From Candidatus Kaiserbacteria bacterium RIFCSPLOWO2_01_FULL_45_25 (GTDB taxonomy: Bacteria > Patescibacteriota > Minisyncoccia > Phycocordibacterales > UBA918): a DNA stretch of 54,152 nucleotides. Below are positions 7,152 through 32,958 of the stretch, in pieces; within the stretch, counting starts at the first letter, position 1, and each line of letters begins with the position of its first letter. Location: positions 9,387 through 63,538 of the forward strand of contig MFLT01000006.1 of the NCBI GenBank assembly GCA_001781415.1, given 5' to 3'. Below the pieces are notes generated by a model, which made no database searches, was not told the DNA's origin, and saw only the letters and a program-made list of their open reading frames with translations. Made by a program: the position numbers and the translations under genes.

Positions 7152-7679
7152 TTAGGCCTGTTCGGCCACACCAGGGAAGCTCTCAGGAGCCTTGTTCGAG
7201 TCCGGCTTCACAAAGAAACCTTCCTTCTGCGAGTACTTCACGCCCGAGACCGCCGGACGGTCGCGCAGCAGGGCTTCGCGGTCAACTTCGGTGATGTAGC
7301 GCAGGTACTGCGTGAGCTTCATGGCTTCCAGGTTTTTGATGACCTGCTCAGCCCCGCCCTTGGCGTAGGTGACTTTGGTCGGCGGCAGCCGCCAGCCGAA
7401 TTCACCGCCAGTCAGCACGAGGCTCTTCTTGTCGCCAACGAGCAGTGTCTTGCGATTCTGCGAAGCGTAGGTCAGCAGGGCTTTTACGTACTGCTTGTGT
7501 TCCTCTTGCAGCGGGGCGGCGGCTTCTTCAGCATTGCTGCGGGCTTCGGCCACATCAGCTTCGAGGTTGGTCTTGATGGTGGCGAGGTCACGCTCACATT
7601 CACCAATCTTGAACAGAAGTGCGTTCACTTCAGACAGATTGGCAGGGACAGGGAAGAGGGATTTTTTGCGGGTGGCCAT
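7152..7679 (-). CDS. Mu Gam-like DNA end-binding / host-nuclease inhibitor
   Basis: Coiled N-terminal half, then KKSLVLTGGEFGWRLPP...YLRYITEVDREALL...FFVKP, typical of Mu Gam; AGGAG SD before ATG 7679. Confidence 0.85.
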   Translation of the reverse strand: MATRKKSLFPVPANLSEVNALLFKIGECERDLATIKTNLEADVAEARSNAEEAAAPLQEEHKQYVKALLTYASQNRKTLLVGDKKSLVLTGGEFGWRLPPTKVTYAKGGAEQVIKNLEAMKLTQYLRYITEVDREALLRDRPAVSGVKYSQKEGFFVKPDSNKAPESFPGVAEQA

Positions 7680-17498: not shown

Positions 17499-17561
17499 AT
17501 TGTGAAGCTATTAATATGATCAATTGTGAAAATGATCCTAAGGTGATAACCTTTGATCAAT

Positions 17562-20129
17562 ATGTCAGACAAGGAGGCAAAGGCCAGAATTAAAATTAAC
17601 AAGCTACTAGAGGATGCCGGCTGGCGCTTCATCGATACCTCTGAAGGTAAAGCGAATGTGCAACTAGAGGCTGGTGTAAGATTTGAAACACTAGGTAGTG
17701 ATTTTGAATTTGCAGAGACTCATGACAAGCGAAGTGGGGCAATTGATTTTCTTTTACTTGATACAGATGGACGACCTTTAGTGGTTGTGGAAGCAAAACG
17801 TGAAGCTATTGACCCACTCTCTGCCAAAGAACAGGCACGGAATTACGCCAGAACAGTTGATGCTCGTTTTGTTATTCTTTCAAACGGTAATATTCATTAC
17901 TTTTGGGATACAAAATATGGGGTCCCAGAAACTACTACCCGATTCCCGTCACAGTCATCACTGACACAATTTAAGTCGTACATTCCAAATCCTCAAGAGC
18001 TGGCTTCTACAGAGGTAGATGAAAATTATGTCGTAGCTACGCAAATGCCAGGGTATTCTAGCGATCCTGAATTTCAAGATGATTCTACACGTAGCGCTTT
18101 TCTCCGTCGTCATAATCTAAAGCAGCTACGACCTTATCAAGTCCAGGCTATAAAAGCACTTCAAGAGGCTTCTAAGGGTGGTAATAAGCGCTTCCTCTTT
18201 GAAATGGCTACTGGTACTGGAAAAACCCTTACTTCAGCAGCGGTTATTAAACTATTCCTCAAATCTGGTAACGCCAAGCGGGTATTGTTTATCGTTGACC
18301 GTCTTGAACTCGAGGACCAAACCAAAAAAGCGTTTATTCAATACTTAGGTAAAGACTACCGTTGTGTTGTATATAAAGAGAATAGGGAATCATGGCAGAA
18401 CGCGAGTGTAGTGGTCTCCACCATCCAATCGTTTATGGCTGGTGATCGTTACAAAAAAGAATTCTCACCAACTGATTTTGAATTTGTAATCTCAGACGAA
18501 GCTCATAGATCAATTGGTGGTAATAGTCGTGCTGTTTTTGAATACTTTGTTGGCTACAAACTTGGACTTACTGCTACCCCAAAAAACTATTTGAAGGGAC
18601 TAGATGCTTCCGACACGGAATCACAACGGGAATATGAACGCCGTCTATTGGCTGATACCTATAAGACCTTCGGGTGTGAACCAGGTAAACCAACGTTTTC
18701 ATATGATCTTCTTAAGGGTTCTAACGAAGGTTATTTGATTCAGCCAACCCTAGTGGATACTCGTACTGATATCACCACCGAACTTCTCTCGAAGGAAGGG
18801 TATGCTGTCCACACAACAACAGACGAAGGCGAAACAGTTGACGAGGTATATAAGGCACGTCATTTTGAACGTAAGTTTTTCAATGATGAAACCAATATTG
18901 CTATGGCTAAAGCTCTCCTCGATAATGGTCTCTATGATCCCATTGCTACCAAATTAGGAGTGCCGCTCTTTGGTAAAACTATCGTTTTCTGTGTATCTCA
19001 AAAACACGCTTCACGTATCACTAATATCCTTAACAGACTTGCGTTCGAAAAGTGGCCACAAATGTATGCTGAAGCCGATTTTGCAATGCAGGTGACGTCT
19101 CATGTATCCGATGCTCAGCAAATGACTATCAACTTTGCAAATAACCGTCTCGGGGGTATTTCTAAGCATCCCGAAGCCTATGAGACTAGCAAGACACGTG
19201 TCACCGTCACAGTTGGAATGATGACTACTGGCTATGACTGTCAGGACCTGCTCAACATCGCTCTCATGCGCCCAGTGTTTAGTCCGGCAGACTTTGTGCA
19301 GATTAAGGGTCGTGGCACTCGCAAACACCGTTTTGAATACCTCGACTACAACACGAATGAGACCACCGTTATAGATAAAGAGCGCTTCAAGTTTTTCGAC
19401 TTCTTTGCTACGTGTGAATACTTTGAAAACGAATTTCCTTATGATGAAAAAATAAAGCTCCCCAAGATTAAGCAAGTTACTGATACCGACCCTACATCCA
19501 CTAGTGACCAAGGTGAATTCGTTGATGAGGACGGTAAGAAAATATTCCGTGGTCCCCTTGATTTAGCATCACCAGATGAGATAGCTACCATCGCTGAAAC
19601 ACAAATTGGTGCAGAAGGGATGCGTATTGATCGTGAAGGATTTAAACAAGCCGTCCAAGAAGATATTCTCAATAATGTAGCCCTCACTACATTGTGGAAG
19701 AATGGCGACATTACTGGTGCAGAAGACTACGCCAAAACCAACATCTTTGATAAACCAAAACATTTCCTTAGTCTTTCTGGTATCCGCAAAATATTTGGTA
19801 TTGACCGTCGCATCTCAGTTCGTGAGTTCCTAGAGGTGGCGTTTGGTGATAAGGAAGGCTTTGAAATGAAAGATGATCTCCTCGAAGCAGAGTGGGAGAA
19901 ATTTACTGAAGTGCATCCGGTTGACCAAGAGCATTACTGGCCAGCCAAAAATTTCTTCAAAGCTTACATTACCGATGAAGACGTGCGTGATATCATAAAA
20001 CGTAATCAGCCAGGAGACTTCCACTTCTCACCATCCTTCGACTTCAGCGATTACCAAAAGCTCAATGTCTACCGTGAATTGGTGCCTCAATACATACACG
20101 ATTATGCTTATCACCTCACCAACCTTTAA
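17562..20129 (+). CDS. hsdR: Type I restriction subunit R (EcoAI/EcoEI-like)
   Basis: D-x-L...VEAK nuclease, QARNYA, MATGTGKT, DEAH, GLTATP, MMTTGYD, QIKGRGTR. Confidence 0.93.
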   Translation: MSDKEAKARIKINKLLEDAGWRFIDTSEGKANVQLEAGVRFETLGSDFEFAETHDKRSGAIDFLLLDTDGRPLVVVEAKREAIDPLSAKEQARNYARTVDARFVILSNGNIHYFWDTKYGVPETTTRFPSQSSLTQFKSYIPNPQELASTEVDENYVVATQMPGYSSDPEFQDDSTRSAFLRRHNLKQLRPYQVQAIKALQEASKGGNKRFLFEMATGTGKTLTSAAVIKLFLKSGNAKRVLFIVDRLELEDQTKKAFIQYLGKDYRCVVYKENRESWQNASVVVSTIQSFMAGDRYKKEFSPTDFEFVISDEAHRSIGGNSRAVFEYFVGYKLGLTATPKNYLKGLDASDTESQREYERRLLADTYKTFGCEPGKPTFSYDLLKGSNEGYLIQPTLVDTRTDITTELLSKEGYAVHTTTDEGETVDEVYKARHFERKFFNDETNIAMAKALLDNGLYDPIATKLGVPLFGKTIVFCVSQKHASRITNILNRLAFEKWPQMYAEADFAMQVTSHVSDAQQMTINFANNRLGGISKHPEAYETSKTRVTVTVGMMTTGYDCQDLLNIALMRPVFSPADFVQIKGRGTRKHRFEYLDYNTNETTVIDKERFKFFDFFATCEYFENEFPYDEKIKLPKIKQVTDTDPTSTSDQGEFVDEDGKKIFRGPLDLASPDEIATIAETQIGAEGMRIDREGFKQAVQEDILNNVALTTLWKNGDITGAEDYAKTNIFDKPKHFLSLSGIRKIFGIDRRISVREFLEVAFGDKEGFEMKDDLLEAEWEKFTEVHPVDQEHYWPAKNFFKAYITDEDVRDIIKRNQPGDFHFSPSFDFSDYQKLNVYRELVPQYIHDYAYHLTNL

Positions 20130-20135
20130 TATTCT

Positions 20136-22601
20136 ATGATTAACGCCGACACCAAACGACATATAGATTCTGCTCGCCAGGTACTAGTTGGCGTGGTCCC
20201 AAACCCAACTTCCCAAATCGACCAAATCACGAACGCTCTTATATACAAATTCATGGACGATATGGACCAGTCAGCCATTAAGGCCGGTGGTGACCCATCG
20301 TTTTTTATTGGTGACCTTGAGCCATACGCCTGGACCAAAATCATGAATGAAAGGCTTGGTCACCAAGAACGAATGAACCTGTATGCCGAAGCCCTTGTTA
20401 AGTTCTCACAAGCCAAGCAACTCCCGCCACTGTTTCGTGATATCTTCAAATCTGCTTACCTCCCATACCGCAGTCCTGAAACCCTAGGTTTGTTCCTAAA
20501 GGAAATCAGCTACTTTGATTATGCTCACCCTGAAGACCTGGGTGATGCCTATGAATACCTTCTGTCTATCATGTCGAGCCAAGGCGATGCTGGTCAATTC
20601 CGCACCCCGCGCAACATCATCGACTTCATGGTGGATGTGGTAAACCCTACCAAAGACGACAAAGTCCTTGATCCTGCTTGTGGTACAGGGGGCTTCCTCG
20701 TGAGTTCATACAAGCACATTATCGAGCAACACGATGGCAAGGATGATCCCGACCATAAGGAAAAACCACTTACTCCTGAACAACGTAAAAAACTATTCAC
20801 CAACTTTGAGGGTTACGATATTGACCCGAGTATGGTTCGTATTGCGCAGGTAAACATGTACCTCCATCAGTTCAAAAATCCTCAGGTCAGCCAGTACGAT
20901 ACGTTAACGCAGGAAGAACACTGGGGTGAAAAGTATGACGTTATCCTAGCGAATCCACCATTCATGTCCCCTCAGGGTGGTATCCGTCCACACAATAAAT
21001 TCAGCCTGCCCTCTAATCGGTCTGAAGTTCTATTTGTTGACTATATTATGAACCACCTCAAGCCAAAGGGCCGAGCAGGTATCATTGTGCCGGAGGGAAT
21101 TATTTTCAAATCAGATACTGCTACTAAGGCACTCCGCAAAGCACTGGTAGAGGATGGACTATATGCAGTAGTGAGCTTGCCAGCAGGTGTTTTCAATCCG
21201 TATGCCGGGGTGAAGACAAGTATCCTTTTGTTTGATAATGAGCATGCCAAGCAAAGCGACGAACTGCTGTTTGTGAAGGTGGAAAACGACGGCTTTGATC
21301 TTGGTGCACAACGCCGGCCAATTAGTAAGAATGACCTACCTGAAGCACTTAAGATATTAAATGCTTGGCGAGAGGGTGAAAAAGTTGAGTCCCCAATTGC
21401 TCAGTGGGTCCTGAGGAAGACAATTGCCGAGACCATTGATTACAATCTTTCAGCAGCAAAATATTTTGAAGCTGTAGATTACTCAAATACTAAGTGGCCA
21501 ACTATAGATTTGGATGAAGTCTCAGTATTAATTCAACGTGGTAAATCGCCGAAATATGGAGAAGGAGGACCGCAAATCATAAAGTCAGGACAAGCACGAG
21601 GTTACTTTAGTTTTGACTCCACTCAAAAGTTTTATGTGGCGAATGATTTTGAAATTGATCATAGAAAATTACAAAAAGGGGACCTGCTAATTAACTCAAC
21701 AGGTGTAGGAACAGCTGGTAGGGTTACACTTTTTGAGTTAGAAGGGGACTATTTAGTTGATAGTCATATAACTATTGTGCGTTTAGATAATACAAAAGTT
21801 TTACCTAAGTTCGTGCTGTATAACTTGGCAAATTTCTATGGCTTTAAAGCTATTGAAGCAATGGCAAAAGGTAATGGTGGTCAAATTGAATTATCTTTAG
21901 CAACAATTAAAGCATTAAAAATTCCACTCCCTCCACTTGAAGTGCAACAGCAAATCGTTTTAGAACTCGACGGCTACCAAAAAATCATCGACGGTGCCCG
22001 TCAAATCGTCGACAACTGGAAGCCAAAGGTGGAAATAGACCATGCTTGGGAGTTAAAGAAACTAGAGAGTCTGCTCGTACGTATCAGTGATCAGATTGAT
22101 CCCCAGAAACACAAGGGTGATGTGTTTTATGTGGGACTTGAAAACATTGATTCAGGAACTGGCTTAATTACCGGAAACTTGATGACACCTTGCGATGTTA
22201 TCAAGAGTCTGAAGAATGCCTTCAAAGCTGGAGATATTCTATATGGAAAACTACGTCCAAACTTAAACAAAGTTTGGTTGGCAGATAGGGACGGTATCTG
22301 TTCAACCGACATACTCGTTTTCAGAGGTACTGATAGTACGATTGCTAGGTTCTTTTGGTACCTAATGCTCTCCGAAAGATTTCTTCAGCAGGCTATGTCT
22401 GGAATAAAAGGTGCAAATTTGCCACGGGTTGGTTATGAACATATTAAGGAGATATTAATGCCTGCCCCACCAATTAAAGAGCAGCAACTAATCATCGACA
22501 GGGTTGAAGCCGAACGTGCACACGTCGAGTCCGCACGTACTCTAATAGACCTCTACACCCAAAAAACCCAGTCTAGCATCGCCAAACTGTGGTCGGAATA
22601 A
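20136..22601 (+). CDS. Fused type I methyltransferase-specificity protein (HsdM-HsdS, m6A)
   Basis: GQFRTP, DPACGTGGF, NPPF, then two TRDs with conserved IPLPPLEVQQQIV and MPAPPIKEQQLI segments. Confidence 0.92.
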   Translation: MINADTKRHIDSARQVLVGVVPNPTSQIDQITNALIYKFMDDMDQSAIKAGGDPSFFIGDLEPYAWTKIMNERLGHQERMNLYAEALVKFSQAKQLPPLFRDIFKSAYLPYRSPETLGLFLKEISYFDYAHPEDLGDAYEYLLSIMSSQGDAGQFRTPRNIIDFMVDVVNPTKDDKVLDPACGTGGFLVSSYKHIIEQHDGKDDPDHKEKPLTPEQRKKLFTNFEGYDIDPSMVRIAQVNMYLHQFKNPQVSQYDTLTQEEHWGEKYDVILANPPFMSPQGGIRPHNKFSLPSNRSEVLFVDYIMNHLKPKGRAGIIVPEGIIFKSDTATKALRKALVEDGLYAVVSLPAGVFNPYAGVKTSILLFDNEHAKQSDELLFVKVENDGFDLGAQRRPISKNDLPEALKILNAWREGEKVESPIAQWVLRKTIAETIDYNLSAAKYFEAVDYSNTKWPTIDLDEVSVLIQRGKSPKYGEGGPQIIKSGQARGYFSFDSTQKFYVANDFEIDHRKLQKGDLLINSTGVGTAGRVTLFELEGDYLVDSHITIVRLDNTKVLPKFVLYNLANFYGFKAIEAMAKGNGGQIELSLATIKALKIPLPPLEVQQQIVLELDGYQKIIDGARQIVDNWKPKVEIDHAWELKKLESLLVRISDQIDPQKHKGDVFYVGLENIDSGTGLITGNLMTPCDVIKSLKNAFKAGDILYGKLRPNLNKVWLADRDGICSTDILVFRGTDSTIARFFWYLMLSERFLQQAMSGIKGANLPRVGYEHIKEILMPAPPIKEQQLIIDRVEAERAHVESARTLIDLYTQKTQSSIAKLWSE

Positions 22602-22607
22602 AATTCT

Positions 22608-23321
22608 ATGTACGATACTGACTATAATCGTTATATAGAAAAACTACTCAATGATCATTTTGATGCATCCCTGCTTTTAAATCATGAGCTCACTAAAGGA
22701 CAGGTTCGTGAGAGATTTATACGTGATCAAATTAATAGCCAGTTTGGCGGTACAACATTATGCACATCTGGTGTAATGTCAGTTAGAGAGGTTAGGGGTC
22801 AGGTAGAATATAAGCAGGCAGATTTAGTTATATTTCCTCATTCAATCCGAAGACGAGAAATTGGGGCTGAGTATCTTATAGACCCGAAAGATGTACTCCT
22901 TATCGCTGACGTAAAAAGTAGTGTCGAGAAGCGCGATATAGTGGAATGGAATAAAATCGCTGAAAAAATACATAAACGGGAGAAGAAAGAGAACTGGAAT
23001 AAAGATACACAGGTAGGTGTAATTAGCTATCGCTACAGTAAGGTTGATTTCCGCAGTCTACTCAAACAATTCGGCTTTGTTTATTCAAAGGACTATGGTG
23101 TATACATATATAAGAGAGGCTCTGAAGAGATTTCGAACTTAGATTTTTTATTTATTTTACATAACGTGGACGGAGAAGATCGGCGCCTGCTTTTGCGTAG
23201 AAACAAAAAGGCTCCTAGACAGAAAGATTTTATCCCTTATACATTGTTAATTGACCAGGCAGCTAGTGACGGATTTTGGGAGATGCTTTATTCATTAACT
23301 GGGGTATATTCTCAAACTTAA
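22608..23321 (+). CDS. DUF6602-like putative PD-(D/E)XK nuclease
   Basis: H...KG..RE.FI...SG...QADLVIF...P..V...DVKS pattern; operonic with the RM genes. Confidence 0.6.
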   Translation: MYDTDYNRYIEKLLNDHFDASLLLNHELTKGQVRERFIRDQINSQFGGTTLCTSGVMSVREVRGQVEYKQADLVIFPHSIRRREIGAEYLIDPKDVLLIADVKSSVEKRDIVEWNKIAEKIHKREKKENWNKDTQVGVISYRYSKVDFRSLLKQFGFVYSKDYGVYIYKRGSEEISNLDFLFILHNVDGEDRRLLLRRNKKAPRQKDFIPYTLLIDQAASDGFWEMLYSLTGVYSQT

Positions 23322-23429
23322 TAATCTGCGGGAAAAGAATTAAAGCAATCAACATTAAATTTGCAATTTGTTCCAACTTATCAAATTTAAGCAATCGATT
23401 AATCTTAAATTTTAGATTACAATAGAGGT

Positions 23430-24482
23430 ATGCAAAGTGAACATAAAGTCATTGATTTGTTCTGTGGTATTGGCGGCCTCTCTCATGGTTTTGTAAGAAG
23501 TGGTTTTAATGTAGTTGCTGGTGTAGATAATGACAGTGCTTGTAAGTATGGTTTTGAGCAGAACAACAAAGCGCAATTTGTAGATGGCGATATCTTAGAC
23601 ATTACTTCAGATCAATTAAATGATTTGTACGGTGATGTTAAGGGAATGAAGATATTGGTTGGCTGCGCGCCTTGCCAGCCGTTTTCTAAACTTAATACCA
23701 GAGGTATAACCGATAAGCAGTTACAGCCTCTCGAAAAGTTTGCACAGCTAATATCTGATATTCAGCCGGATATAGTTTCAATGGAAAACGTGAAAGGGTT
23801 GCTAAAAAATCCCATATTTGAAAAGTTCCTAGAAAATCTTGATGAAAATGGTTATCACTACTCGTACCAAATAGTTAATTTTTCTGATTATGGTGTGCCA
23901 CAAAATCGGTTCCGTTTGGTTCTCCTTGCATCTAAACATGGTGAAATTAATTTGATACCTCCTACTCACTTAAATAAAAAGAAAACAGTTAGAGATACTA
24001 TTGCGCAGTTAGAGGCGATTACTGACGGTCAGGTTTCTGAGAAAGATCCGCTTCACAGAGCAAGATCACTTAGTCCACTAAATAAGAAGCGTATAAAAGC
24101 TACGCCAAAGGACGGAGGCAACTCTCGTAGTTGGAGTGACGATCTTGTTTTAGAGTGCCACAAAAAGAATACCGGCAACTCTTATAGAGGAACTGTGTAC
24201 GGGAGAATGAGCTGGGACGAACCGTCACCTACAATGACCACGCAATGTACTGGACTTGGTAATGGCCGCTATGGTCATCCGGAGCAAGATCGCGCAATTA
24301 CTCTCCGGGAAGCTGCTTTATTCCAGACTTTCCCTAAGAGTTACAAGTTTATTGCACCCACTGATCAGATTACAACCTCTAAACTAGCTAGATTTATTGG
24401 AAATGCTGTTCCTGTACGGGCTGGGGAGGTAATTGCAAAAAGTATAGAAAAGCATATTCTTGAACTCAATGCAAGAAAATAA
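23430..24482 (+). CDS. dcm: C5 DNA cytosine methyltransferase
   Basis: DLFCGIGG, APCQPFS, ENVKG, GVPQNRFR, GHPEQDRAITLREAA, IGNAVP. Confidence 0.95.
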   Translation: MQSEHKVIDLFCGIGGLSHGFVRSGFNVVAGVDNDSACKYGFEQNNKAQFVDGDILDITSDQLNDLYGDVKGMKILVGCAPCQPFSKLNTRGITDKQLQPLEKFAQLISDIQPDIVSMENVKGLLKNPIFEKFLENLDENGYHYSYQIVNFSDYGVPQNRFRLVLLASKHGEINLIPPTHLNKKKTVRDTIAQLEAITDGQVSEKDPLHRARSLSPLNKKRIKATPKDGGNSRSWSDDLVLECHKKNTGNSYRGTVYGRMSWDEPSPTMTTQCTGLGNGRYGHPEQDRAITLREAALFQTFPKSYKFIAPTDQITTSKLARFIGNAVPVRAGEVIAKSIEKHILELNARK

Positions 24483-26103
24483 CAACCCATTTGTATTTGA
24501 AATATCGCTGAGTATCTTAGACCATCTCGGGCGAAACCTTTATCGTAATTTCGTTACGATTTTAGGTGAAGCTATTTCAAACTCTTGGGACGCCGACGCT
24601 TCAAATGTGTGGATATATGTAGACGGAGACAATTTCGTAATTAAGGATGACGGTATTGGGATGGATTTTGGTGATTTTCAGGGAAAGTTTTTGAGAGTAG
24701 GCTATTCAAAGAGGAAGAATGATAATACGCTATCTGCAAAGGGCAGACCTTTTATTGGTAGAAAAGGTATTGGTAAATTGGCTTTACTCTCATGTGCTGA
24801 AAAAGTAAGTATAATTTCAAAAAAAGAAAATGGTGAGTATATTGGAGGTACGATCAATAATTCAATACTAGACCAAGTTATTAAGGATGATTTAAAGCCA
24901 GATCAGTATCCACTAGAACCACTAGATTTAAAAATATTTGCAAAGTATATAGAAGGTCACAATCAAGGTACCGTAATTCATTTTGAAAATGTTAGAGACG
25001 GTATTAAAAACAGCGTAGACTTTTTGAAGAAAATCACGGCGCTATATTTCCGATTTTCGCTAATTGATACATCTTTTAATATATATATTAATGATGACTT
25101 AATAACCCTGGAAGATGTTAAAGATTTGTCAGATAAGACCCAGTATTTATGGTCATTAAACAATTTTAGTGATCCTTTTATTGATGAAAATCTTTCGCAT
25201 ATTGAACAGGCACACAGAAAGAATTTTGAGTTACCGGAAGGTATATCTGGTTTCGTGGCTTCAGTTTTGACACCAAAAAATCTGAGCATTTTAGGAACAG
25301 GGGAACGAGTCAGTCTTGACTTATTTGTAAACGGAAGATTACGTGAAAGAGACATTTTGAAGAATACACCTACTGCTCGAATTGCAGAGAGCTATCTATA
25401 TGGACAAGTTCACTATAATGCATTAGATAAAGGGGAAGATAAGTTCACAAGTAGCCGTGAAGGAGTCGTGGCAGATGATCCTGAATATCAAGAGTTTCTT
25501 TCTGTAATAAAAGGTGTTGTCGCAGACATAGTGAATGATTGGGATAAGTTGCGTGTTAAAAATAGAGAAGAGGGTGATCCTGAGAATGAGAGAATTACAC
25601 CAAAAGAAAGAAAATCTCGCGAACTAGTTGGAGTTGTGACAAAAGAATATGCTACAAAGACTAAAGCAGACAACGTTAACACTTGGATGGATGAACTTGC
25701 TGACGATGCACAGTTTAATGTGCAGTCTTATACAGAATGCTTCGTTTCTGAAAATCTGGTGCGAAAATATATTACAGCAAAAAATATTCCAATGACTACA
25801 GTAGCGCAAGCTCAGATAACAGAGTGGAAAGATAGAGAGGTTGAAAATAAGAGACATGCAAACATAAATATTGACATCATGAGAACGGGTGAGGATATTA
25901 GTTATCTTGGAATGGATACACTTACATTTCTCGCTGACAATACAGGTACCGCTAACTCAATGAGGACCGACGCAAAAGAATATAAACCCCTTAGGAATGC
26001 TGTGATGCATACATCATTACTTACCGATGCAGCAAAGCTTAGATTGACTACAGTTTACGAAAACATCAAAGCTAGAATTAAGTCACTAATAAACCAACCA
26101 TAA
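24469..26103 (+). CDS. GHKL (MORC/MutL-like) ATPase with C-terminal RxxxxH (HEPN-like) motif
   Basis: EAISNSWDA, DDGIGM, GRKGIGKLA, GT box; C-terminal LRNAVMH; overlaps the dcm stop. Confidence 0.82.
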   Translation: MQENNNPFVFEISLSILDHLGRNLYRNFVTILGEAISNSWDADASNVWIYVDGDNFVIKDDGIGMDFGDFQGKFLRVGYSKRKNDNTLSAKGRPFIGRKGIGKLALLSCAEKVSIISKKENGEYIGGTINNSILDQVIKDDLKPDQYPLEPLDLKIFAKYIEGHNQGTVIHFENVRDGIKNSVDFLKKITALYFRFSLIDTSFNIYINDDLITLEDVKDLSDKTQYLWSLNNFSDPFIDENLSHIEQAHRKNFELPEGISGFVASVLTPKNLSILGTGERVSLDLFVNGRLRERDILKNTPTARIAESYLYGQVHYNALDKGEDKFTSSREGVVADDPEYQEFLSVIKGVVADIVNDWDKLRVKNREEGDPENERITPKERKSRELVGVVTKEYATKTKADNVNTWMDELADDAQFNVQSYTECFVSENLVRKYITAKNIPMTTVAQAQITEWKDREVENKRHANINIDIMRTGEDISYLGMDTLTFLADNTGTANSMRTDAKEYKPLRNAVMHTSLLTDAAKLRLTTVYENIKARIKSLINQP

Positions 26104-26160
26104 ATAGGAAAAGGGGGCAGGGACAATAAAGCTAAAAATCCCGTATTGTAATTTTAAGCC

Positions 26161-26191
26161 AAACTAAAACCGCCTTGGGCGGTTTTAGTTT
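26161..26191. terminator. Bidirectional terminator
   Basis: AAACTAAAACCGCC-TTG-GGCGGTTTTAGTTT. Confidence 0.75.
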
Positions 26192-26211
26192 GCTTCATTT
26201 TCGTTTAATTA

Positions 26212-26694
26212 CTATGAGCTTTTTACAACAATAAATTCATTTAACATCGCTAGGTATTGATCTACGATTTTTGGTTGGATTTTGCCGTGATGGAATGGTT
26301 TGACGGCACCTTTGTTTGCGATGATAGTATCCACTTGATCATAGAAGAAACCGTCTGGTGTAGCGATAAAGAGGGCAGCGTGCCGCCAGGATTTTTCTAT
26401 CTCCTTGGCAATGGCGTTTACTTTGCCATTAGTTCGTTTGGCCATGTATTTGATTTCAACCAAGGTCACATTGTGCGTGTCTTCGTTTACTATCGCATAG
26501 TCTGGTGCTTTGCGAACAATTTCTATCATTGCTCTAGCATCTTCGCTCTTAGGAGCTTTGGCTAGTTGGTGGACTACCTTTTCGTAGCCAAATTCTAGTA
26601 CGGTGTAGCCTTTAGTGTTGTGTATCATTTGTTCAAAGATAATTTCGGCAATCTTTCCCTTGATCAGTTCGTGGGTGAATTTGATGTTATTCAT
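26212..26694 (-). CDS. Putative PD-(D/E)XK nuclease-fold protein
   Basis: KGKIAE...PDYAIV...VEIKY. Confidence 0.65.
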   Translation of the reverse strand: MNNIKFTHELIKGKIAEIIFEQMIHNTKGYTVLEFGYEKVVHQLAKAPKSEDARAMIEIVRKAPDYAIVNEDTHNVTLVEIKYMAKRTNGKVNAIAKEIEKSWRHAALFIATPDGFFYDQVDTIIANKGAVKPFHHGKIQPKIVDQYLAMLNEFIVVKSS

Positions 26695-26755
26695 ATGCTG
26701 AAATTATACCTTTTGTGTAGTCATTCTATATAGATAGCTTGAACAAACAGGGGAG

Positions 26756-26776
26756 TAGGTGTAGAATTCACACTAA
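26756..26776. promoter_or_regulatory. NrtR-type operator (autoregulatory)
   Basis: TAGGTGT-AGAATTC-ACACTAA ends 1 nt before the nrtR ATG and overlaps a TAGAAT -10-like box. Confidence 0.7.
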
Positions 26777-26777
26777 T

Positions 26778-27452
26778 ATGTCACAAAAAGCCCCAGATAA
26801 ATTAAGGTTTGCCGCTATGGCGGTGGATGTGGTTTTGTTTGCTGTTGTCGATGGGAAGTTGTCGGTCCTCCTTGGTGAAGTAAATCGTCCCCCGTACTAC
26901 ACCAATATTGAAGCCTTTATCGGTGGGTTGATTTTTGCCAACGAGACGGCGGAGATGGCGCTCGAACGTCATATCAGAAGTAAGGCTGAACTAAAGAAGG
27001 CGTACACTGAGCAGTTGTATACCTTTAGTGAGATTGAACGCGATCCGCGTAATCGGGTGATCTCAATTAGTTATCTTGGACTGGTGCGACCGGATGCTTT
27101 GAAGCAAGAACTGTGTGAGGGACTCCGCTGGTGTGAAGTTAAGAAGCTGCCAAAGCTGGCGTATGATCATGATGAGATGTTTAAGGTAGCGATTAGTAGG
27201 CTTAAGGGGAAGATCTCTTATACCAACATCGCGCAGTACTTGCTGCCAAAAGAATTTACACTCAGTGAACTCCAGGCGGTCTACGAACTAATCTTGGGCA
27301 AGGAAGTAGATAAGCGAAACTTTAGAAAGAAGATTATTGCGCTTGATATGGTGGTGGAGACAGGTGAGATGCAGCAGGGAGTGAAGAATCGTCCAGCGGC
27401 TTTATATCGATTTACTTCTGAGAAGCTCACTGAACTACCACTACTGATTTAA
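26778..27452 (+). CDS. nrtR: NrtR-family regulator (degenerate Nudix + winged HTH)
   Basis: AVDVVLF, EQLYTF...RDPRNRVISISY, LAYDH, FTLSELQAVYE, DKRNFRKKI, RPAALY; the Nudix box lacks the catalytic glutamates. Confidence 0.92.
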   Translation: MSQKAPDKLRFAAMAVDVVLFAVVDGKLSVLLGEVNRPPYYTNIEAFIGGLIFANETAEMALERHIRSKAELKKAYTEQLYTFSEIERDPRNRVISISYLGLVRPDALKQELCEGLRWCEVKKLPKLAYDHDEMFKVAISRLKGKISYTNIAQYLLPKEFTLSELQAVYELILGKEVDKRNFRKKIIALDMVVETGEMQQGVKNRPAALYRFTSEKLTELPLLI

Positions 27453-27462
27453 GGAGAAGGGG

Positions 27463-27487
27463 AGAGCGGCCGCAAGGCCGCTCTTTT
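27463..27487 (+). terminator. Intrinsic terminator after nrtR
   Basis: AGAGCGGCC-GCAA-GGCCGCTCT followed by a T run. Confidence 0.8.
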
Positions 27488-27498
27488 GCTGTCTGTAA

Positions 27499-27559
27499 AT
27501 AGTGTAGTTTTGACAATAAGGTAATCTTGTATCATAACTTAGTGTAGTGTTGACACTAA
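27499..27559 (+). promoter_or_regulatory. Promoter with two NrtR-type operators
   Basis: ATAGTGT-N7-ACAATAA (27499-27519, overlapping TTGACA at 27510) and TTAGTGT-N7-ACACTAA (27539-27559, perfect arms), 40 bp apart. Confidence 0.8.
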
Positions 27560-27654
27560 TACAGGAGAGGAGTATCTTTGTGTCAGATATACACAAAGTA
27601 CTTCAGCCAAGTAAATGGTCGAAGTATCCGTTCTTTGACAGAAAGGAAATAATT

Positions 27655-28782
27655 ATGACGAACGCACTTGAGGTCGTCCGCGACCAGTTTGCCAAAGCCA
27701 GTCGGTTTGCCGATGTCTTTGGGTCACTGTCCGGAGCTGATCTTGATGAGAAGAAGCGGTTGCTGAAAAAGCAATACTCCATCCTCGCCAAGATGACTCA
27801 CCCGGACCGGGTGAGTGCTCCTGAAGTGGCTCTCGCGACAGCGGTGTTTGCCGAACTGTCTACTCTCTACCGTCGGGCGCAGGATGCGCTTGTGGCCGGG
27901 GTGTACGACAACAGCTTCATCCCTTCACGGGGTGGGGCGGCTAGTACCAAGGTGACCGTCTCAGCTGGTACGGCAACGTACCAGCTTGATGTGGAAGCAT
28001 ATCGGGAGGGAGACTTCTCGAACATCCACTTGGGTGAAGCGGCGGATGGGTCAAAAATCTTTGCGAAGATTGCGGCTGATCCCACGCTGAATCCCTACCT
28101 GGTCGGTGAAGCCAACCTGCTGGCGCAAGCCAGTAAGTTGGCGGCTCTGAAGGGTATTCTCCCGTTTTTGCCCAAGCTCCTTGATTCGGTCATTTTGACC
28201 GAAGCTGGGAACGAGCAGTACCGGGTGAACCTCTATGAGTACAAGCCAGGGTTTGTCTCGCTCACTGAAATCAAAAACGCTTTTCCGGGAGGACTTCCTC
28301 CTGAAGATGCGGCTTGGATTTTTAGGCGAGTACTGGGGCAGACGCTCGCAGCGAATATGCTGGGGGTTGTCCATGGGGCGATTGTGCCAGATCACGTCCT
28401 CGTGAATCCGCTGACACACGAACCTCTCCACATCGGCTGGGCACACGCTATAGAGCGGCCAGCTGAACGAAATGCCAAGCTCACCACGGTCATCGACCGC
28501 TTCAGTGACTGGTATCCACCGGAAGTCTTGGCCCGAGAAGTGCCGTCTCATCAAACCGACCTTTACATGGCCGGCAAGACGATGGTCTACCTCCTCGGGG
28601 GAGATGTGGCTCGTGACAGATTCCCGAGCCATGTGCCAGAGCCCTTGGTGCAATTGGTGCGGCGATGCCTTGAGACGAAAGTCGAGAAGCGTCCCCGCGA
28701 TGCCTTTGCACTCATGCAAGAGTTCACGAAAGTGATCGACAAGCTCTGGGGCAGGAAATATCGGCCGCTTCGGCTGCTGTAA
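27655..28782 (+). CDS. J-domain + Ser/Thr-kinase-fold fusion (probable pseudokinase)
   Basis: KKQYSILAKMTHPDR J-domain; IFAKIA, VVHGAIVPDHV, YPPE, DLYMAG, RCL..RP; AAAGGA SD before ATG 27655. Confidence 0.82.
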   Translation: MTNALEVVRDQFAKASRFADVFGSLSGADLDEKKRLLKKQYSILAKMTHPDRVSAPEVALATAVFAELSTLYRRAQDALVAGVYDNSFIPSRGGAASTKVTVSAGTATYQLDVEAYREGDFSNIHLGEAADGSKIFAKIAADPTLNPYLVGEANLLAQASKLAALKGILPFLPKLLDSVILTEAGNEQYRVNLYEYKPGFVSLTEIKNAFPGGLPPEDAAWIFRRVLGQTLAANMLGVVHGAIVPDHVLVNPLTHEPLHIGWAHAIERPAERNAKLTTVIDRFSDWYPPEVLAREVPSHQTDLYMAGKTMVYLLGGDVARDRFPSHVPEPLVQLVRRCLETKVEKRPRDAFALMQEFTKVIDKLWGRKYRPLRLL

Positions 28783-28816
28783 CTGTGAATCTAAACTGTA
28801 ACGCAAGGAGAGTATC

Positions 28817-29836
28817 ATGGGTGGTGGAACTTGGGACAGCGGCGCCTATTCAGCCGCAACTTCTGCTCGTCGCGCCTCTGGCATTGACGATTTCGATTAC
28901 ACCAACAAGGTGCGGTCGGGTACGGTATCGGGTATCCACCCGACGCTTGACCCACTCGGGATGAAGAACCCGGACTCGAGCAAGTATCGGTTCCCGCTTC
29001 GCGAGAGTCGAGACAGCGCTGAGCACCCGGATTCGATTCCGATTGCGATCATCTTTGATGTCACCGGTTCGATGCATTCGATCCCGACGGTGCTGCAGCA
29101 AAAGCTGACGCGCCTGATGGACGTGGTCATCGACAAGGCCGGCATTCCTGATCCGCAAGTGCTGGTGGGCGCCGTCGGCGACTCCATCAGTGACCGGTAT
29201 CCGCTTCAGGTGGGGCAGTTCGAGTCGAGCAACCTGTTTGACGAACAACTGCGCAACATCATCCTCGAAGGTGGTGGTGGCGGCCAAAGCATGGAATCCT
29301 ATGCGCTGGCCTACCGCTTTGCTGCAGACCACACGGCCACCGACGCGTTTGAAAAGCGCGGCAAGAAGGGCTACCTCTTCACCATGGGTGACGAGAAGCC
29401 CTGGCCAACGGTGACGGCGGCAGATGTCTCGCGCCTCTTTGGGGTCGAGGCGTCAGAAGACGAGACGGTGGAAAGTCTCATTGCTCGGGCCTCCGAGCGC
29501 TGGGAAATCTTCCACCTCTTCTCGCTTGATGGCAGCTACCGCAACGACAAGCAAGTGCACGACACCTGGCGCAAGCTCCTCGGTGAACGGCTTGTGATGG
29601 TCGAGGATTCGTCCTTGGTGTGCGAAATCATTGCTGGTATCGTGCACATGATGGAGACGGCCTACGACGTCGATCGGGTGGTGGGTGACATCGGCCTGTC
29701 CGGTGCGGCGGCTTCGGCCGTGAAGAATGCACTCGTGCCGGTCGGAACCAGTTCTTTGGTCGCCAAGCGGCAAGCCAGCGCGAGCGGCGCCCTCAAGAAG
29801 GGTGGAGCTGCCAGGGGTGGCGTGTCGCGGATCTGA
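28817..29836 (+). CDS. vWA-domain protein
   Basis: MIDAS DVTGSM, GGGG..ESY, MGDE; MGGGTW N-terminus; AAGGAG SD. Confidence 0.85.
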   Translation: MGGGTWDSGAYSAATSARRASGIDDFDYTNKVRSGTVSGIHPTLDPLGMKNPDSSKYRFPLRESRDSAEHPDSIPIAIIFDVTGSMHSIPTVLQQKLTRLMDVVIDKAGIPDPQVLVGAVGDSISDRYPLQVGQFESSNLFDEQLRNIILEGGGGGQSMESYALAYRFAADHTATDAFEKRGKKGYLFTMGDEKPWPTVTAADVSRLFGVEASEDETVESLIARASERWEIFHLFSLDGSYRNDKQVHDTWRKLLGERLVMVEDSSLVCEIIAGIVHMMETAYDVDRVVGDIGLSGAAASAVKNALVPVGTSSLVAKRQASASGALKKGGAARGGVSRI

Positions 29837-29859
29837 TCTTTCAGTTCCTTTACGTAACT

Positions 29860-29891
29860 GCGGCGACACCAATGGTGTCGCCGCTTTCTTT
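29860..29891 (+). terminator. Intra-operon hairpin (terminator-like)
   Basis: GCGGCGACACC-AAT-GGTGTCGCCGC followed by TTTCTTT. Confidence 0.65.
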
Positions 29892-29915
29892 ATCTCAAAC
29901 TATGGAGCATATATC

Positions 29916-31319
29916 ATGCATGCATCAATTGTGACTGACCTTGGCTTTGGTGATGCTGGTAAAGGCACCATGGTCGACTACTTGGCTCGCCAGACATCTC
30001 AGGCGGTCATCGTTCGCTTCAACGGCGGTGCTCAGGCCGCACACAACGTCCACACCGCCTGCGGGAAACATCACACGTTTTCGCAGTTCGGCAGCGGCAT
30101 GCTCGTCCCGGGTACGCGGACGTTTCTTTCGCACTACGTGTTGTTTGATCCGTTTGCGCTTAGGAACGAAGCGGACGCGCTCTCGAAGCTCGTCCCCGGC
30201 GACCCACTCTCTCGAGTGATTGTCGATGGTGGTGCGCTCACGGTTACGCCGTTTCAAAAGGCAGCCAACCGGGTGCGGGAATCGCTTCGTGGAGCCGGAC
30301 GTCACGGCAGTGTGGGTATGGGTATCGGTGAAACGATGGCCGACATGCTCACGTTTCCGGAATTGGCGGTCTACGCGCACGACCTGCGTGACCTGCCGCT
30401 TTTGTTCCAAAAACTGAAGCGGCAACAGGAGCTCAAGCAAGCGGAGTTTGGTGAAAGGTTGGCGGTTGTGTCCGAATCTGGTGTTTTGCCAGAGGAGGTG
30501 CGACTCCTGTCTGATCCGAACGCTCCGCGGTACATCGCCGAGACGATGGTCGAGCTCTCGCGGCGGTTTACGCTCGGCTCGATGAGTATCCTCAAACGCC
30601 TCTCGTACGAGCATCCACTCATCTTCGAAGGTGCACAGGGAATTCTGATCGACGAGTGGCACGGCTTCCATCCGTACACCACCTGGAGTACAAGCACCAA
30701 CAAGAACGCCAACGCGCTCTTGCGTGACTTGGGCTACCTGGGGCCGGTTAATCGCTACGGCGTGGTGCGGGCATATAGCACCCGTCATGGGCCAGGACCG
30801 TTTCCAAGCGAAGACCAAGGACTCACCATGGCCTTGCCAGACACGCACAACGTGTTTGGTCGGTGGCAGGGTGGTTTCAGGGTGGGGTGGCTTGATCTGC
30901 CACTCACGCGCTACGCGCTTGCGGTATCGGAAGGTACCGACACCATTCTGCTCACGCACCTTGATCGGTGGGCTCAGTTGGGAGAGAAGAAGGTGGTGAC
31001 TGCCTACGCAGTTGAGGCATCGGCATTGTCCACGCGTGAGCGAGCGGCGATTGTCGAGATGAAGGTGGCACGCCCGGTGGCAGGGAAGGTGTATATTGGT
31101 TCCTTCAGACCGAAGGAGACGCTTGAAGACCTGACCTACCAGGAGATGCTTGGAGACATACTCGGAAAGTCCGAGCCAGTCTTTGAGTACACTGAGCTTT
31201 CAGGCGAGGCGTACGCTGACTTTGTCGGTACGCGCCTTGGTCTCCCTGTCGGGGTGACTTCGTACGGGCGCACTGCTGCTGAGAAGCGCGAGCGGCTGTC
31301 ACTCCTCCAGGCTGCATGA
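29916..31319 (+). CDS. Divergent adenylosuccinate synthetase (PurA)-like ligase
   Basis: DLGFGDAGKG, RFNGGAQAAH, HGSVGMGIG, FEGAQG, PYTTWS, RAYSTRHGPGPFPSE, RVGWLD, THLD; GGAG SD before ATG 29916. Confidence 0.88.
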   Translation: MHASIVTDLGFGDAGKGTMVDYLARQTSQAVIVRFNGGAQAAHNVHTACGKHHTFSQFGSGMLVPGTRTFLSHYVLFDPFALRNEADALSKLVPGDPLSRVIVDGGALTVTPFQKAANRVRESLRGAGRHGSVGMGIGETMADMLTFPELAVYAHDLRDLPLLFQKLKRQQELKQAEFGERLAVVSESGVLPEEVRLLSDPNAPRYIAETMVELSRRFTLGSMSILKRLSYEHPLIFEGAQGILIDEWHGFHPYTTWSTSTNKNANALLRDLGYLGPVNRYGVVRAYSTRHGPGPFPSEDQGLTMALPDTHNVFGRWQGGFRVGWLDLPLTRYALAVSEGTDTILLTHLDRWAQLGEKKVVTAYAVEASALSTRERAAIVEMKVARPVAGKVYIGSFRPKETLEDLTYQEMLGDILGKSEPVFEYTELSGEAYADFVGTRLGLPVGVTSYGRTAAEKRERLSLLQAA

Positions 31320-31342
31320 ACAGTTCTTTGAACCACAACTAC

Positions 31343-31369
31343 AAACCGGACGCTTGCGTCCGGTTTTTT
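31343..31369 (+). terminator. Intrinsic terminator ending the operon
   Basis: AAACCGGACGC-TT-GCGTCCGGTTT plus T run. Confidence 0.8.
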
Positions 31370-31431
31370 ATGTGTAGGAATTTTGAATAAAAGAAAACCC
31401 CGCCTAGGCGAGGTTTGGTTGGTGGTCTGGT

Positions 31432-31782
31432 TTAGTTGAGGAGCTGCCTGGGCGGCAACGATTCGAGGTGACAGACATATACCGCGTCCTTGCCCAGGGC
31501 CACCAGACGAGCGTTGTTGGCGGGTAGTTCCCGCGCGAGGGACGGTTGTAATTCGGGAAGTACTTCCAGAATCGGTGCCAACACCGTTGCGTCTGCCACA
31601 CAGCAGGCGATTCTGCCTGGGGTGATGGGTTCGGTGGTCAGCCAAGGAATCAGGTCGGCATATTCCGAATCTGGTTCAATGCAAAGAACCACAATCTCCT
31701 CCAGGCTAAGCCCGCGTAGCGCTGCTGCTTCGTAAACAAGACTAGACAGCATTGCTTTCTGGAGACTAACAAATTTTTTCAT
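31432..31782 (-). CDS. Hypothetical protein, paralogue family member 2
   Basis: GGGAG SD before MKKFVS; similar to 16650..17075. Confidence 0.7.
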   Translation of the reverse strand: MKKFVSLQKAMLSSLVYEAAALRGLSLEEIVVLCIEPDSEYADLIPWLTTEPITPGRIACCVADATVLAPILEVLPELQPSLARELPANNARLVALGKDAVYVCHLESLPPRQLLN

Positions 31783-31801
31783 CAGATACTCCCAGGTGTG
31801 A

Positions 31802-32197
31802 TTAAGATAGGCGGCTATACTCCATAAGGATATCGCCAGCGGTAACTGCCTCTTCGTCCAAGTCCCCGAAGAAGCAGAGTATTCTGGCTCGGCCAGGCCG
31901 GCAGGGAGCCAAAATCTCTTCTTCCATCTCCGGCATGTTCTGGACTGCGTATTCACACAATAGCCAAGAGCAGTAACCAGTAGTAAAGCGCTGGTGCGGA
32001 TTTGGGAGAAAGGCTTCTTTGGGGTAATTGGTTGCTTCCGACAAAGCGTCAGCGTGAGCCGACCAAGTTGATTTGGTGTCAAAAACAAAGATGACTGGCG
32101 GTTTGAACTTTTGGCTCGCAATTGAAGCCAGGCGCTGAAGTTCATCGATGCGGGCTGCCATCTCGTTGGCGATCGGGGGCACTTTTGGTCTAAACAT
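31802..32197 (-). CDS. Hypothetical protein, paralogue family member 3
   Basis: GGAGG SD before MFRPK; G..SW..C...P motif shared with 16650..17075. Confidence 0.7.
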   Translation of the reverse strand: MFRPKVPPIANEMAARIDELQRLASIASQKFKPPVIFVFDTKSTWSAHADALSEATNYPKEAFLPNPHQRFTTGYCSWLLCEYAVQNMPEMEEEILAPCRPGRARILCFFGDLDEEAVTAGDILMEYSRLS

Positions 32198-32352
32198 GTT
32201 TTCCTCCAGACGGTTGAAAGAGCAGGATTTAAGCAAGAGTAGTCGGAAAAGAGTTTATTGTAAAGCCGCCTGCTAATTAAGGGAAAGGGGCAGGACGATG
32301 AAACTAAAGACCTTCCTTGAAAAACCGTAAATTTGTGATATAATCACAAATA

Positions 32353-32958
32353 ATGAATAACTTTAAACCAGGAGGACAAAGAAATCGTAAAGAATTTCTT
32401 GGTGGTCGCCCTAAGTCAGATGCAAACTATGGACCGAAGAAACGATTTGAAAGTAACGACCGGGGACCACGCCGTGATGATCGTGGTGGGGAACGAAAAA
32501 TAGAACTATTTACTACCGCTTGTACTACCTGTGGTAAGTCGTGTGAGGTACCTTTCAAACCAGATGGCACTAAGCCGGTATTGTGTCGGGACTGTTTTGC
32601 TGCCAAAAACGCTGGCGGGGACAATGCTCGTAGTGGCAATCGTTCTACTAGTAATGACTTTGCACCGCGCAAGCCAGAGCGTTCATTTGATGCTCCGCGC
32701 GTAGAGCGAGCACCTGGTGTGTCTAGGGAAGACTTCGCTGCACTGTCTCGCCATGTCACAGCTCTAGATGCTAAGATCAATGAGATTCTCGCAATAGTGA
32801 AGACTGCCCATGCAACGGTTGAAAAGCCACCGGCGGCAGCTGAAGCTGCAACTGGAGAAGAGGTAACTATTAAGAAAGACCGCAAGCCTAAGAAGGCTGC
32901 AAAAGTGGTGAAGAAGACAGTTAAGAAAGCAGCGAAGAAGGTGACCAAAAAGAAGTAG
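32353..32958 (+). CDS. CxxC-x17-CxxC zinc-ribbon protein with Lys-rich tail
   Basis: CTTCGKSCEVPFKPDGTKPVLCRDCF; C-terminal KKAAKVVKKTVKKAAKKVTKKK. Confidence 0.88.
   Translation: MNNFKPGGQRNRKEFLGGRPKSDANYGPKKRFESNDRGPRRDDRGGERKIELFTTACTTCGKSCEVPFKPDGTKPVLCRDCFAAKNAGGDNARSGNRSTSNDFAPRKPERSFDAPRVERAPGVSREDFAALSRHVTALDAKINEILAIVKTAHATVEKPPAAAEAATGEEVTIKKDRKPKKAAKVVKKTVKKAAKKVTKKK

Follow-up and report, generated by a model that had tools for sequence, protein, structure and literature searches.

The window analysed here, a stretch of 54,152 nucleotides from contig MFLT01000006.1 of Candidatus Kaiserbacteria bacterium RIFCSPLOWO2_01_FULL_45_25, carries nrtR, the gene for a regulator of the NrtR family, followed by a cassette of three genes that encode a J-domain pseudokinase, a vWA-like protein and a PurA-like (adenylosuccinate-synthetase-like) enzyme. 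Four 21-bp palindromes, one at the start of nrtR and three in front of the cassette, are very probably the operators of this adjacent repressor, judging from their conservation, from the DNA-reading residues of the protein and from the manner in which operator and recognition helix vary together across phyla. Such operators are of a known kind; the three-gene cassette that they gate is undescribed in the literature searched, in which we also found no publication linking NrtR to PurA-like/vWA cassette genes or to Saccharibacteria. To our knowledge, regulators in bacteria of the candidate phyla radiation are almost unstudied, and in this member of the group the operator, the residues that would read it and the whole predicted regulon can be read from the sequence.

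Palindromes and promoters at the nrtR locus

All four boxes are 21-bp inverted repeats with a GT-N7-AC core; their consensus is TTAGTGT-N7-ACACTAA, and no strand is assigned to any of them. Box A (26756..26776; TAGGTGT-AGAATTC-ACACTAA) is the predicted autoregulatory operator, box O1 (27499..27519; ATAGTGT-AGTTTTG-ACAATAA) the predicted upstream auxiliary operator, box O2 (27539..27559; TTAGTGT-AGTGTTG-ACACTAA) a predicted operator with the perfect consensus and box O3 (27577..27597; TTTGTGT-CAGATAT-ACACAAA) a newly found predicted operator. O1 lies 40 bp upstream of O2, and the tandem spacing overall is 38-40 bp centre to centre. A sequence-only reading of this DNA had already noted box A, O1 and O2, and when positions 26500-27900 were read directly both the sequences and the coordinates proved to be exactly as given; its number of boxes was too low, with O3 overlooked and now recovered by a pattern search. 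The rule that it had applied, namely that NrtR sites are palindromes of ~21 bp with a GT-N7-AC core, matches the description of NrtR sites as 21-bp palindromes with this core by Rodionov et al. 2008 (PMC2330246; this paper and the others cited below are drawn on in part).

The genome scanned comprises 962,770 bases on 13 contigs, has ~45% G+C and is 98% complete by markers. A genome scan with a position weight matrix (PWM), which the sequence-only reading had proposed as a check, was run using a matrix trained on 30 sites from nine loci of other genomes, with this genome and its 95%-identical relative left out. The four boxes took ranks 1-4 of all genome positions (O2, 25.5 bits; O1, 23.3 bits; O3, 18.3 bits; box A, 17.4 bits) in what is a partly circular test, the training sites having been chosen by likeness to the window consensus: their independent aspect is their position beside nrtR, NAD (nicotinamide adenine dinucleotide) genes and cassette genes, not their sequence. 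The next-best sites, at 14.7 and 13.8 bits, both fall within open reading frames (ORFs), and these candidates (C8:256441 and C8:130074) were dropped as chance matches. As there is no other high-scoring intergenic box in the genome, the regulon would consist of nrtR and the cassette only. At up to two mismatches, TTAGTGT-N7-ACACTAA occurs six times genome-wide, with four of these sites inside 842 bases at the nrtR locus; five simulated genomes gave 4, 4, 9, 2 and 6 sites, which were scattered, and by our own arithmetic the chance of such clustering for randomly placed sites is of the order of 1e-8. The box sequences and their clustering are real and go beyond chance. Counted in the window alone, the 19-mer pattern has five matches at up to two mismatches against 1.82 expected, a number reached by 5 of 100 shuffles; this count, marginally above shuffles, is weak evidence by itself.

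The boxes coincide with promoter-like sites. Upstream of nrtR (26778..27452, + strand) the promoter scan lists TTGAAC -17- TAGAAT (26739..26767, + strand; 9/12 matches), the -10 of which is within box A; this box overlaps the -10/+1 region and ends 1 nt 5' of the nrtR ATG, so that the nrtR transcript probably has little or no leader. The nrtR stop codon is followed by a terminator-like hairpin (27460..27492, + strand) with a GC-rich stem, a GCAA loop and then UUUUGCUG, and this predicted terminator separates nrtR from the next unit: it was found by folding (-25.5 kcal/mol, z -3.84; 1 of 200 shuffles equally stable) and is unlisted in the promoter/terminator scan. The sole promoter-like site listed further downstream is TTGACA (27550-27555) -17- TATCTT (27573-27578) (27550..27578, + strand; 10/12 matches), with its -35 inside O2, and O3 begins on the last two bases of its -10 and reaches the +1 region. 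In the same-genus genome G001 the equivalent position reads TTGACA -17- TAACTT, and the placement of boxes on the promoters of nrtR and of co-localised targets is conserved in kin (G020, G001 and other loci). An Rfam scan of 26000-32500 (E up to 0.1) revealed no RNA element in the control region, with two sub-threshold small RNA matches elsewhere.

The sequence-only reading had drawn the operon promoter differently, with the -35 in O1 (27510-27515), CATAAC as the -10 (27533-27538) and O2 as an operator at +1, an arrangement under which O3 would be incidental or a roadblock. Its TTGACA is indeed present in O1 and stands 17 nt from CATAAC; O1 also has the second-best PWM score and is kept, together with the 40-bp spacing, in both G001 and G020. 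However, the promoter scan does not list this site, because CATAAC lacks the final T, and lists TTGACA at 27550 with TATCTT instead; the equivalent upstream -10 in G001 is TGGAAC, whereas the downstream promoter there retains its TAACTT; and upstream of the Nudix gene at locus L012 there is again a pair of boxes 38 bp apart whose first member contains TTGACA. We therefore place the supported, conserved promoter with its -35 in O2 and consider the upstream alternative unlikely, although both promoters may fire, since the two models are not exclusive.

Conservation of the boxes in relatives and across phyla

NrtR was found in 8 of the 61 related genomes searched and in 7 of the 36 other members of the genus, and at all six same-genus loci with strong NrtR matches (47-95% identity) a box abuts the nrtR start. 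Downstream of nrtR, G020 (NrtR 95% identical) and G001 (47%) carry this cassette too, behind three boxes at spacings of 40 and 38 bp; the counterpart of O3 is present in both, with one mismatch in G020. In sister genomes the targets are NAD genes: a nadM-Nudix gene preceded by two boxes in G012, a GNAT-NAD kinase fusion and a Nudix/NAPRTase pair with boxes before them in G019, a divergent Nudix-nadV unit flanked by boxes in G022 and pnuC-nadR, with boxes between it and nrtR, in G036. The box pair 38 bp apart recurs in G019, where the right arm of the first box again forms TTGACA, and thus the module of the window appears to be the standard NrtR promoter-operator unit of the genus. The sequence-only reading had held that a lack of such boxes upstream of orthologous operons would speak against it; they are present in G020, in G001 and at nine Chloroflexota-type loci. 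As a separate observation, nrtR and nadV converge in G022 (locus L013), and the space between their 3' ends holds a one-mismatch box (7428-7448), closely followed by a hairpin; this box has no evident promoter role.

A scan with a vWA alignment, using one genome per species, returned at least 550 bacterial relatives, the nearest of which have records labelled Candidatus Saccharibacteria. Of the best 80 of these loci, 76 have the PurA-like gene after vWA, 59 a homologue of the J-domain pseudokinase before vWA and 55 an NrtR homologue no more than 7 kb from the cassette; this last count, which extends across phyla, bears out the tie between regulator and cargo genes that the sequence-only reading had proposed. 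At locus L033 the order is nrtR, box, prs-like gene, NAMPT-like gene, two boxes and then the cassette. Nine loci, eight labelled as Chloroflexota lineages and one unclassified, have pairs of TTAGTGT-N7-ACACTAA directly 5' of the cassette with no nrtR nearby; all five genomes tested among these nine encode one NrtR_WHD protein elsewhere, and in two of the five a box abuts that gene. In one annotated Chloroflexota genome the motif is also found before nadC-nadA and beside a pncA-like gene, a pattern with which the Chloroflexi regulon in Table 1 of Rodionov et al. 2008 (PMC2330246) agrees.

Actinomycetota carry other palindromes. Nocardia-type loci show AT-rich TTTTAGTC-N5-GACTAAAA palindromes directly upstream of the cassette (13 loci and one more). 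These lie within DNA of 68-72% G+C (L038-L044, L048, L052, L070, L084, L096, L097 and L109) at loci labelled Nocardia, Gordonia and Mycobacteriaceae, and in some of them the palindrome is 46 bases before vWA and no J-domain pseudokinase ORF was found there. Micromonospora- and Streptomyces-type loci have GTTCTCA..GAGAAC arrays upstream of nrtR, which are likely to be a lineage-specific operator array in Actinomycetota. At L045, L047, L059, L061, L085, L088, L094 and others these consist of two to four overlapping GTTCTCA-N4/5-GAGAAC-like repeats, positioned ~60-20 bases upstream of nrtR, the first gene, and preceded by GCTA(A/G/C)GTT. A further palindrome of Micromonospora-type loci, CGTCGGTCGCCGTGACCGTCG, was rejected as an operator: it is inside the nrtR coding region, where it encodes a conserved AVTVD strand.

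The recognition helix changes along with the palindrome. All Saccharibacteria- and Chloroflexota-type NrtRs examined have the helix DKRNFR(K/R) and the operator TTAGTGT-N7-ACACTAA, the helix DPxNLNR of the Nocardia type pairs with TTTTAGTC-N5-GACTAAAA, and HAGNFHR of the Micromonospora and Streptomyces types with GTTCTCA..GAGAAC. We regard this co-variation as the strongest argument that NrtR itself would be the protein reading the boxes. The palindromes could in principle belong to another DNA-binding protein, or be duplicated pieces of promoter or chance repeats, with NrtR a mere neighbour: O1 and O2 agree at 18 of their 21 bases, TTGACA among them, as expected of duplicated promoters, and the count within the window stands only marginally above shuffles. 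Yet the sequences flanking O1 and O2 are unrelated to each other, TTGACA is absent from box A and O3, and orthologous boxes retain their arms with the central 7 bases variable; the motif tracks the NrtR helix across phyla and matches the operator of a crystallised family member, four of the six genome-wide sites cluster at the nrtR locus, and the best 80 viral loci with the same cassette, mostly without nrtR, contain no box at up to two mismatches. This alternative is highly improbable, and we retain NrtR as the reader.

The putative reader and its ligand

NrtR of the window is a protein of 224 residues with a degenerate Nudix domain and a winged helix-turn-helix domain. Its Pfam matches are PF21906 NrtR_WHD (6.5e-27; 93.9 bits, cut-off 27; residues 154-212), PF19368 AraR_C (9.6e-13) and PF00293 NUDIX (2.3e-5, above its cut-off). 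The Nudix signature is REUXEE; the Nudix box of the window protein reads G-x5-E-x7-R-H-I-R-S-K and is, by its sequence, degenerate and of the non-catalytic type, with the REUXEE glutamates lost. The closest PDB match is BtAraR (5bs6, 2.1e-35), and SoNrtR (3gz5) matches at 4.3e-23, both in full-length alignments. BtAraR was crystallised on GTGT-N7-ACAC, with K179, R180, N181, K184, K204 and R205 defining the GTGT (Chang et al. 2015, PMC4666351). In an alignment that is gap-free in this region, the window protein has K179, R180, N181, K184, N204 and R205, that is five of the six base-contacting residues, and its recognition helix (D178-K-R-N-F-R-K184) is identical to the DKRNFRK of BtAraR.

Characterised NrtR proteins are repressors (PMC2330246), and those of S. 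oneidensis and Synechocystis were validated by electrophoretic mobility shift assay (EMSA) and are released by ADP-ribose; ADP-ribose also releases MsNrtR, which represses its own gene (Gao et al. 2019, PMC6800001). For the window protein we infer binding, repression and effector along the same lines. One NrtR dimer would sit on each box via its winged helix, with K179, R180, N181 and K184 reading GTGT in both half-sites the way BtAraR does in its DNA-bound crystal. Box A, lying over the nrtR -10 and start point, would provide autorepression; TTGACA -17- TATCTT would drive the operon of the J-domain pseudokinase, vWA and PurA-like genes after the terminator hairpin, with O2 covering the -35 and O3 the -10/+1, and O1, 40 bp upstream, would probably either assist occupancy cooperatively or keep a weaker promoter further upstream blocked. 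Binding of a small molecule in the Nudix pocket would free the DNA and so derepress both units; the likeliest candidate is ADP-ribose, or else a related phosphorylated metabolite of NAD. Auto-repression and control of the operon had been put forward by the sequence-only reading, and domains, DNA-reading residues, conserved boxes and motif sites at NAD genes lend support to both.

Several observations weigh against this assignment, in addition to the partial circularity of the PWM test. The left arm of box A is imperfect and O3 has two mismatches to the consensus; the related genomes are kin and no independent samples; and in two large Chloroflexota genomes the counts at up to two mismatches, 5 against 4 and 13 against 35 for a reversed-pattern control, are not above control, so that in these genomes only the top-scoring sites and their locations count as evidence. 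Targets among NAD genes, as in a classical NrtR regulon, are seen in sister genomes and in one Chloroflexota genome and not here: tblastn with NAD-salvage proteins of sister species found no match in this genome, and neither PF04095 (NAPRTase/NAMPT) nor PF01513 (NAD kinase) is matched. PF01467 has one match elsewhere, PF02540 a marginal match that contains a stop codon, and there is no clear NAD synthase match, an absence which in a genome 98% complete by markers is not proven. The protein itself scores 128.2 bits against a cut-off of 400 for NF050029, the equivalog of the 'ADPR responsive transcriptional repressor', and by its sequence is a member of the NrtR family outside this equivalog; it is nearer in sequence to the arabinose-sensing BtAraR than to the ADP-ribose-sensing SoNrtR, and its V35 is aligned to SoNrtR R41.

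The boxes could also be NrtR operators that respond to an effector other than ADP-ribose, such as a sugar, NAD itself or a compound that the cassette makes or consumes. The best PDB match, the equivalog score and the loss of R41 all lean in this direction, and NrtR-family effectors are known to span NAD metabolites to pentoses, with NdnR of C. glutamicum responding to NAD (PMC4666351). The rest of the pocket suggests otherwise. R88 and H131 align with R86 and H131 of BtAraR, which bind ribose/arabinose, and K69 aligns with SoNrtR K76, where BtAraR has Leu (L67); K76 contacts the alpha-phosphate in SoNrtR, and Phe36 fills the phosphate space in BtAraR (PMC4666351), a residue replaced by R37 in the window protein. 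A ribose-phosphate ligand would fit R88, H131 and K69. In addition, same-genus orthologues with 58-66% identity are found on NAD-salvage genes with the same boxes, and there are no arabinose or xylose genes among the annotated neighbours. A different effector thus appears the less probable option, if a serious one, and to ADP-ribose or a near relative we would give, from the pocket and its context, about an even chance or slightly better.

Comparison with known systems shows how the locus is related to each. As in the regulons of Rodionov et al. 2008 (PMC2330246), a Nudix regulator with a winged helix-turn-helix domain is combined with 21-bp GT-N7-AC sites in the promoters of nrtR and adjacent genes, and the targets of sister species (nadM, nadV, pncB-like, pnuC-nadR) are among those of Table 1 of that paper. 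In contrast to these regulons, NAD genes are neither controlled by the motif nor detectable here, and the sole target is an uncharacterised cassette of three genes; the part of the paper drawn on does not cover Saccharibacteria. The same source lists targets of unknown function, nrtX-nrtY, in a divergent or separate layout (PMC2330246), whereas nrtR is co-directional with the cassette at Frankia- and Streptomyces-labelled loci. BtAraR of Bacteroides thetaiotaomicron (PMC4666351) shares, besides the helix, the GTGT-N7-ACAC geometry and tandem sites per promoter; however, it senses L-arabinose and controls arabinose genes, as reported with a DNA complex and EMSA, its sites are 3 bp or 42 nt apart compared to 38-40 bp centre to centre here, and the window protein differs from it by L67 to K69, by F36 to R37, which leaves the phosphate space unfilled, and by K204 to N204 in the wing. 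MsNrtR of Mycobacterium smegmatis (PMC6800001) resembles our proposal in its autoregulation via a palindrome at its own promoter and in the disruption of binding by ADP-ribose, but has the operator GTTTTCGA-N7-TCGAAAAC (23 bp), targets nrtR and the de novo NAD genes nadABC, and is regulated by acetylation.

The cassette in bacteria and phages, and the neighbouring DNA

The first cargo gene (27655..28782, + strand; AGGAA 8 nt before the ATG) encodes a protein with a J-domain-like head, which includes an HPD motif, and a kinase-like C-terminal half with the degenerate catalytic motif HGAIVPDH. Its DnaJ match (0.0062) is under the cut-off, its PADLOC and NCBIfam matches are weak and kinase-type, and relatives match Pkinase at 4.5e-6 and 9e-7. 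The second (28817..29836, + strand) encodes the vWA-like protein, in which a metal ion-dependent adhesion site (MIDAS)-like motif, DVTGSM, was read by eye and for which no Pfam, PADLOC or NCBIfam match was found. PADLOC gave no match for the PurA-like protein either, and given matches limited to the weak kinase-type ones of the first gene, the cassette was not classed as a known defence system.

The third cargo gene (29916..31319, + strand; 467 residues) has a PF00709 match at 1.5e-55, the only one in the genome, and is below all NCBIfam PurA cut-offs (NF002223, 150.4 against 402 bits; TIGR00184, 128.8 against 395.55). The TTTGRPRR loop of adenylosuccinate synthetase binds aspartate; the cargo protein keeps GDAGKG and AAHN, and RWQGG-FR stands where solved synthetases have TTTGRPRR. 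With low scores and this loop replaced, the protein is, on sequence grounds, not a member of PurA. It could be a GTP-dependent PurA-like ligase re-tooled for a substrate other than aspartate and inosine monophosphate (IMP). The vWA gene is separated from the PurA-like gene by a terminator-like hairpin (29860..29884, + strand; 11 pairs, nine of them GC, then a T-rich tail), which may attenuate expression of the enzyme; the gap between the two genes is 80 bases here and in G020, and 14 bases in G001. In G001 (locus L014, 5042-6536) the PurA-like gene is interrupted, its two overlapping ORFs encoding 188 and 347 residues, owing to either a frameshift or an assembly error.

As the cassette is wired across phyla to a sensor that controls NAD synthesis and salvage, its role is probably in NAD or ADP-ribose metabolism. 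Tentatively, the trio may be an enzyme system acting on ADP-ribose or NAD breakdown products, turned on during NAD destruction and also borne by phages, and could serve as one more way to rebuild or guard NAD+. If this holds, the cassette is the sole NrtR target kept by a genome without other detectable NAD-salvage genes. The operators provide a functional handle on a widespread cassette.

The same vWA alignment, applied to viral contigs, retrieved 247 relatives, and many of these contigs are 100-500 kb long. In the best 80 viral loci vWA is next to the PurA-like gene in 77 cases, and a J-domain pseudokinase is present in 40, nadV in 6 and NrtR in 3; with NrtR so rare and boxes absent from these loci, the cassette seems to travel without its switch in phages. 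On the tentative reading above, the presence of the cassette free of NrtR control in ~250 phage contigs would suggest a use against NAD-depleting host immunity, and the question posed by the cassette becomes one of finding the inducer and then the substrates. Two viral contigs, L130 (513 kb) and L147 (145 kb), have an nrtR-like gene and nadV immediately upstream of the vWA/PurA-like pair, with the J-domain pseudokinase homologue located downstream. The phage NAD+ reconstitution pathways NARP1, NARP2 and NARP3 (PMC13464706) are similar in that NAD-linked gene sets are common to bacteria and large phages. The likeness of the cassette to them is one of context only, namely its 247 viral stretches and its occasional position beside nadV; the NARP enzymes differ, none being PurA-like, vWA or a J-domain pseudokinase, and none of these three is mentioned in the part of PMC13464706 drawn on.

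The region of 28-32 kb, which takes in the cassette and the sequence immediately beyond, has 57% G+C, compared to 45% for the genome and 38-45% just upstream. The nearest relatives of the vWA protein are from other Saccharibacteria-type loci (54-73%), with Actinomycetota at ~45%. Upstream of nrtR, restriction-modification genes of 38% G+C form an island (17553-26103) with a type I R subunit, a fused M+S gene (821 residues), a DUF6602 protein, a C5 cytosine methylase and a BbrUII/HgiDII-like GHKL restriction enzyme. Between this island and nrtR, and diverging from the latter, lies an ORF of 160 residues (26212-26694, - strand) without a family match, in which a PD..(E)xK-like motif (PDY..VEIK) was seen by eye and which has a homologue at just one of the seven loci compared, that of G020 (96%). 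Box A is 62-82 bases upstream of the start of this ORF, which could share NrtR control.

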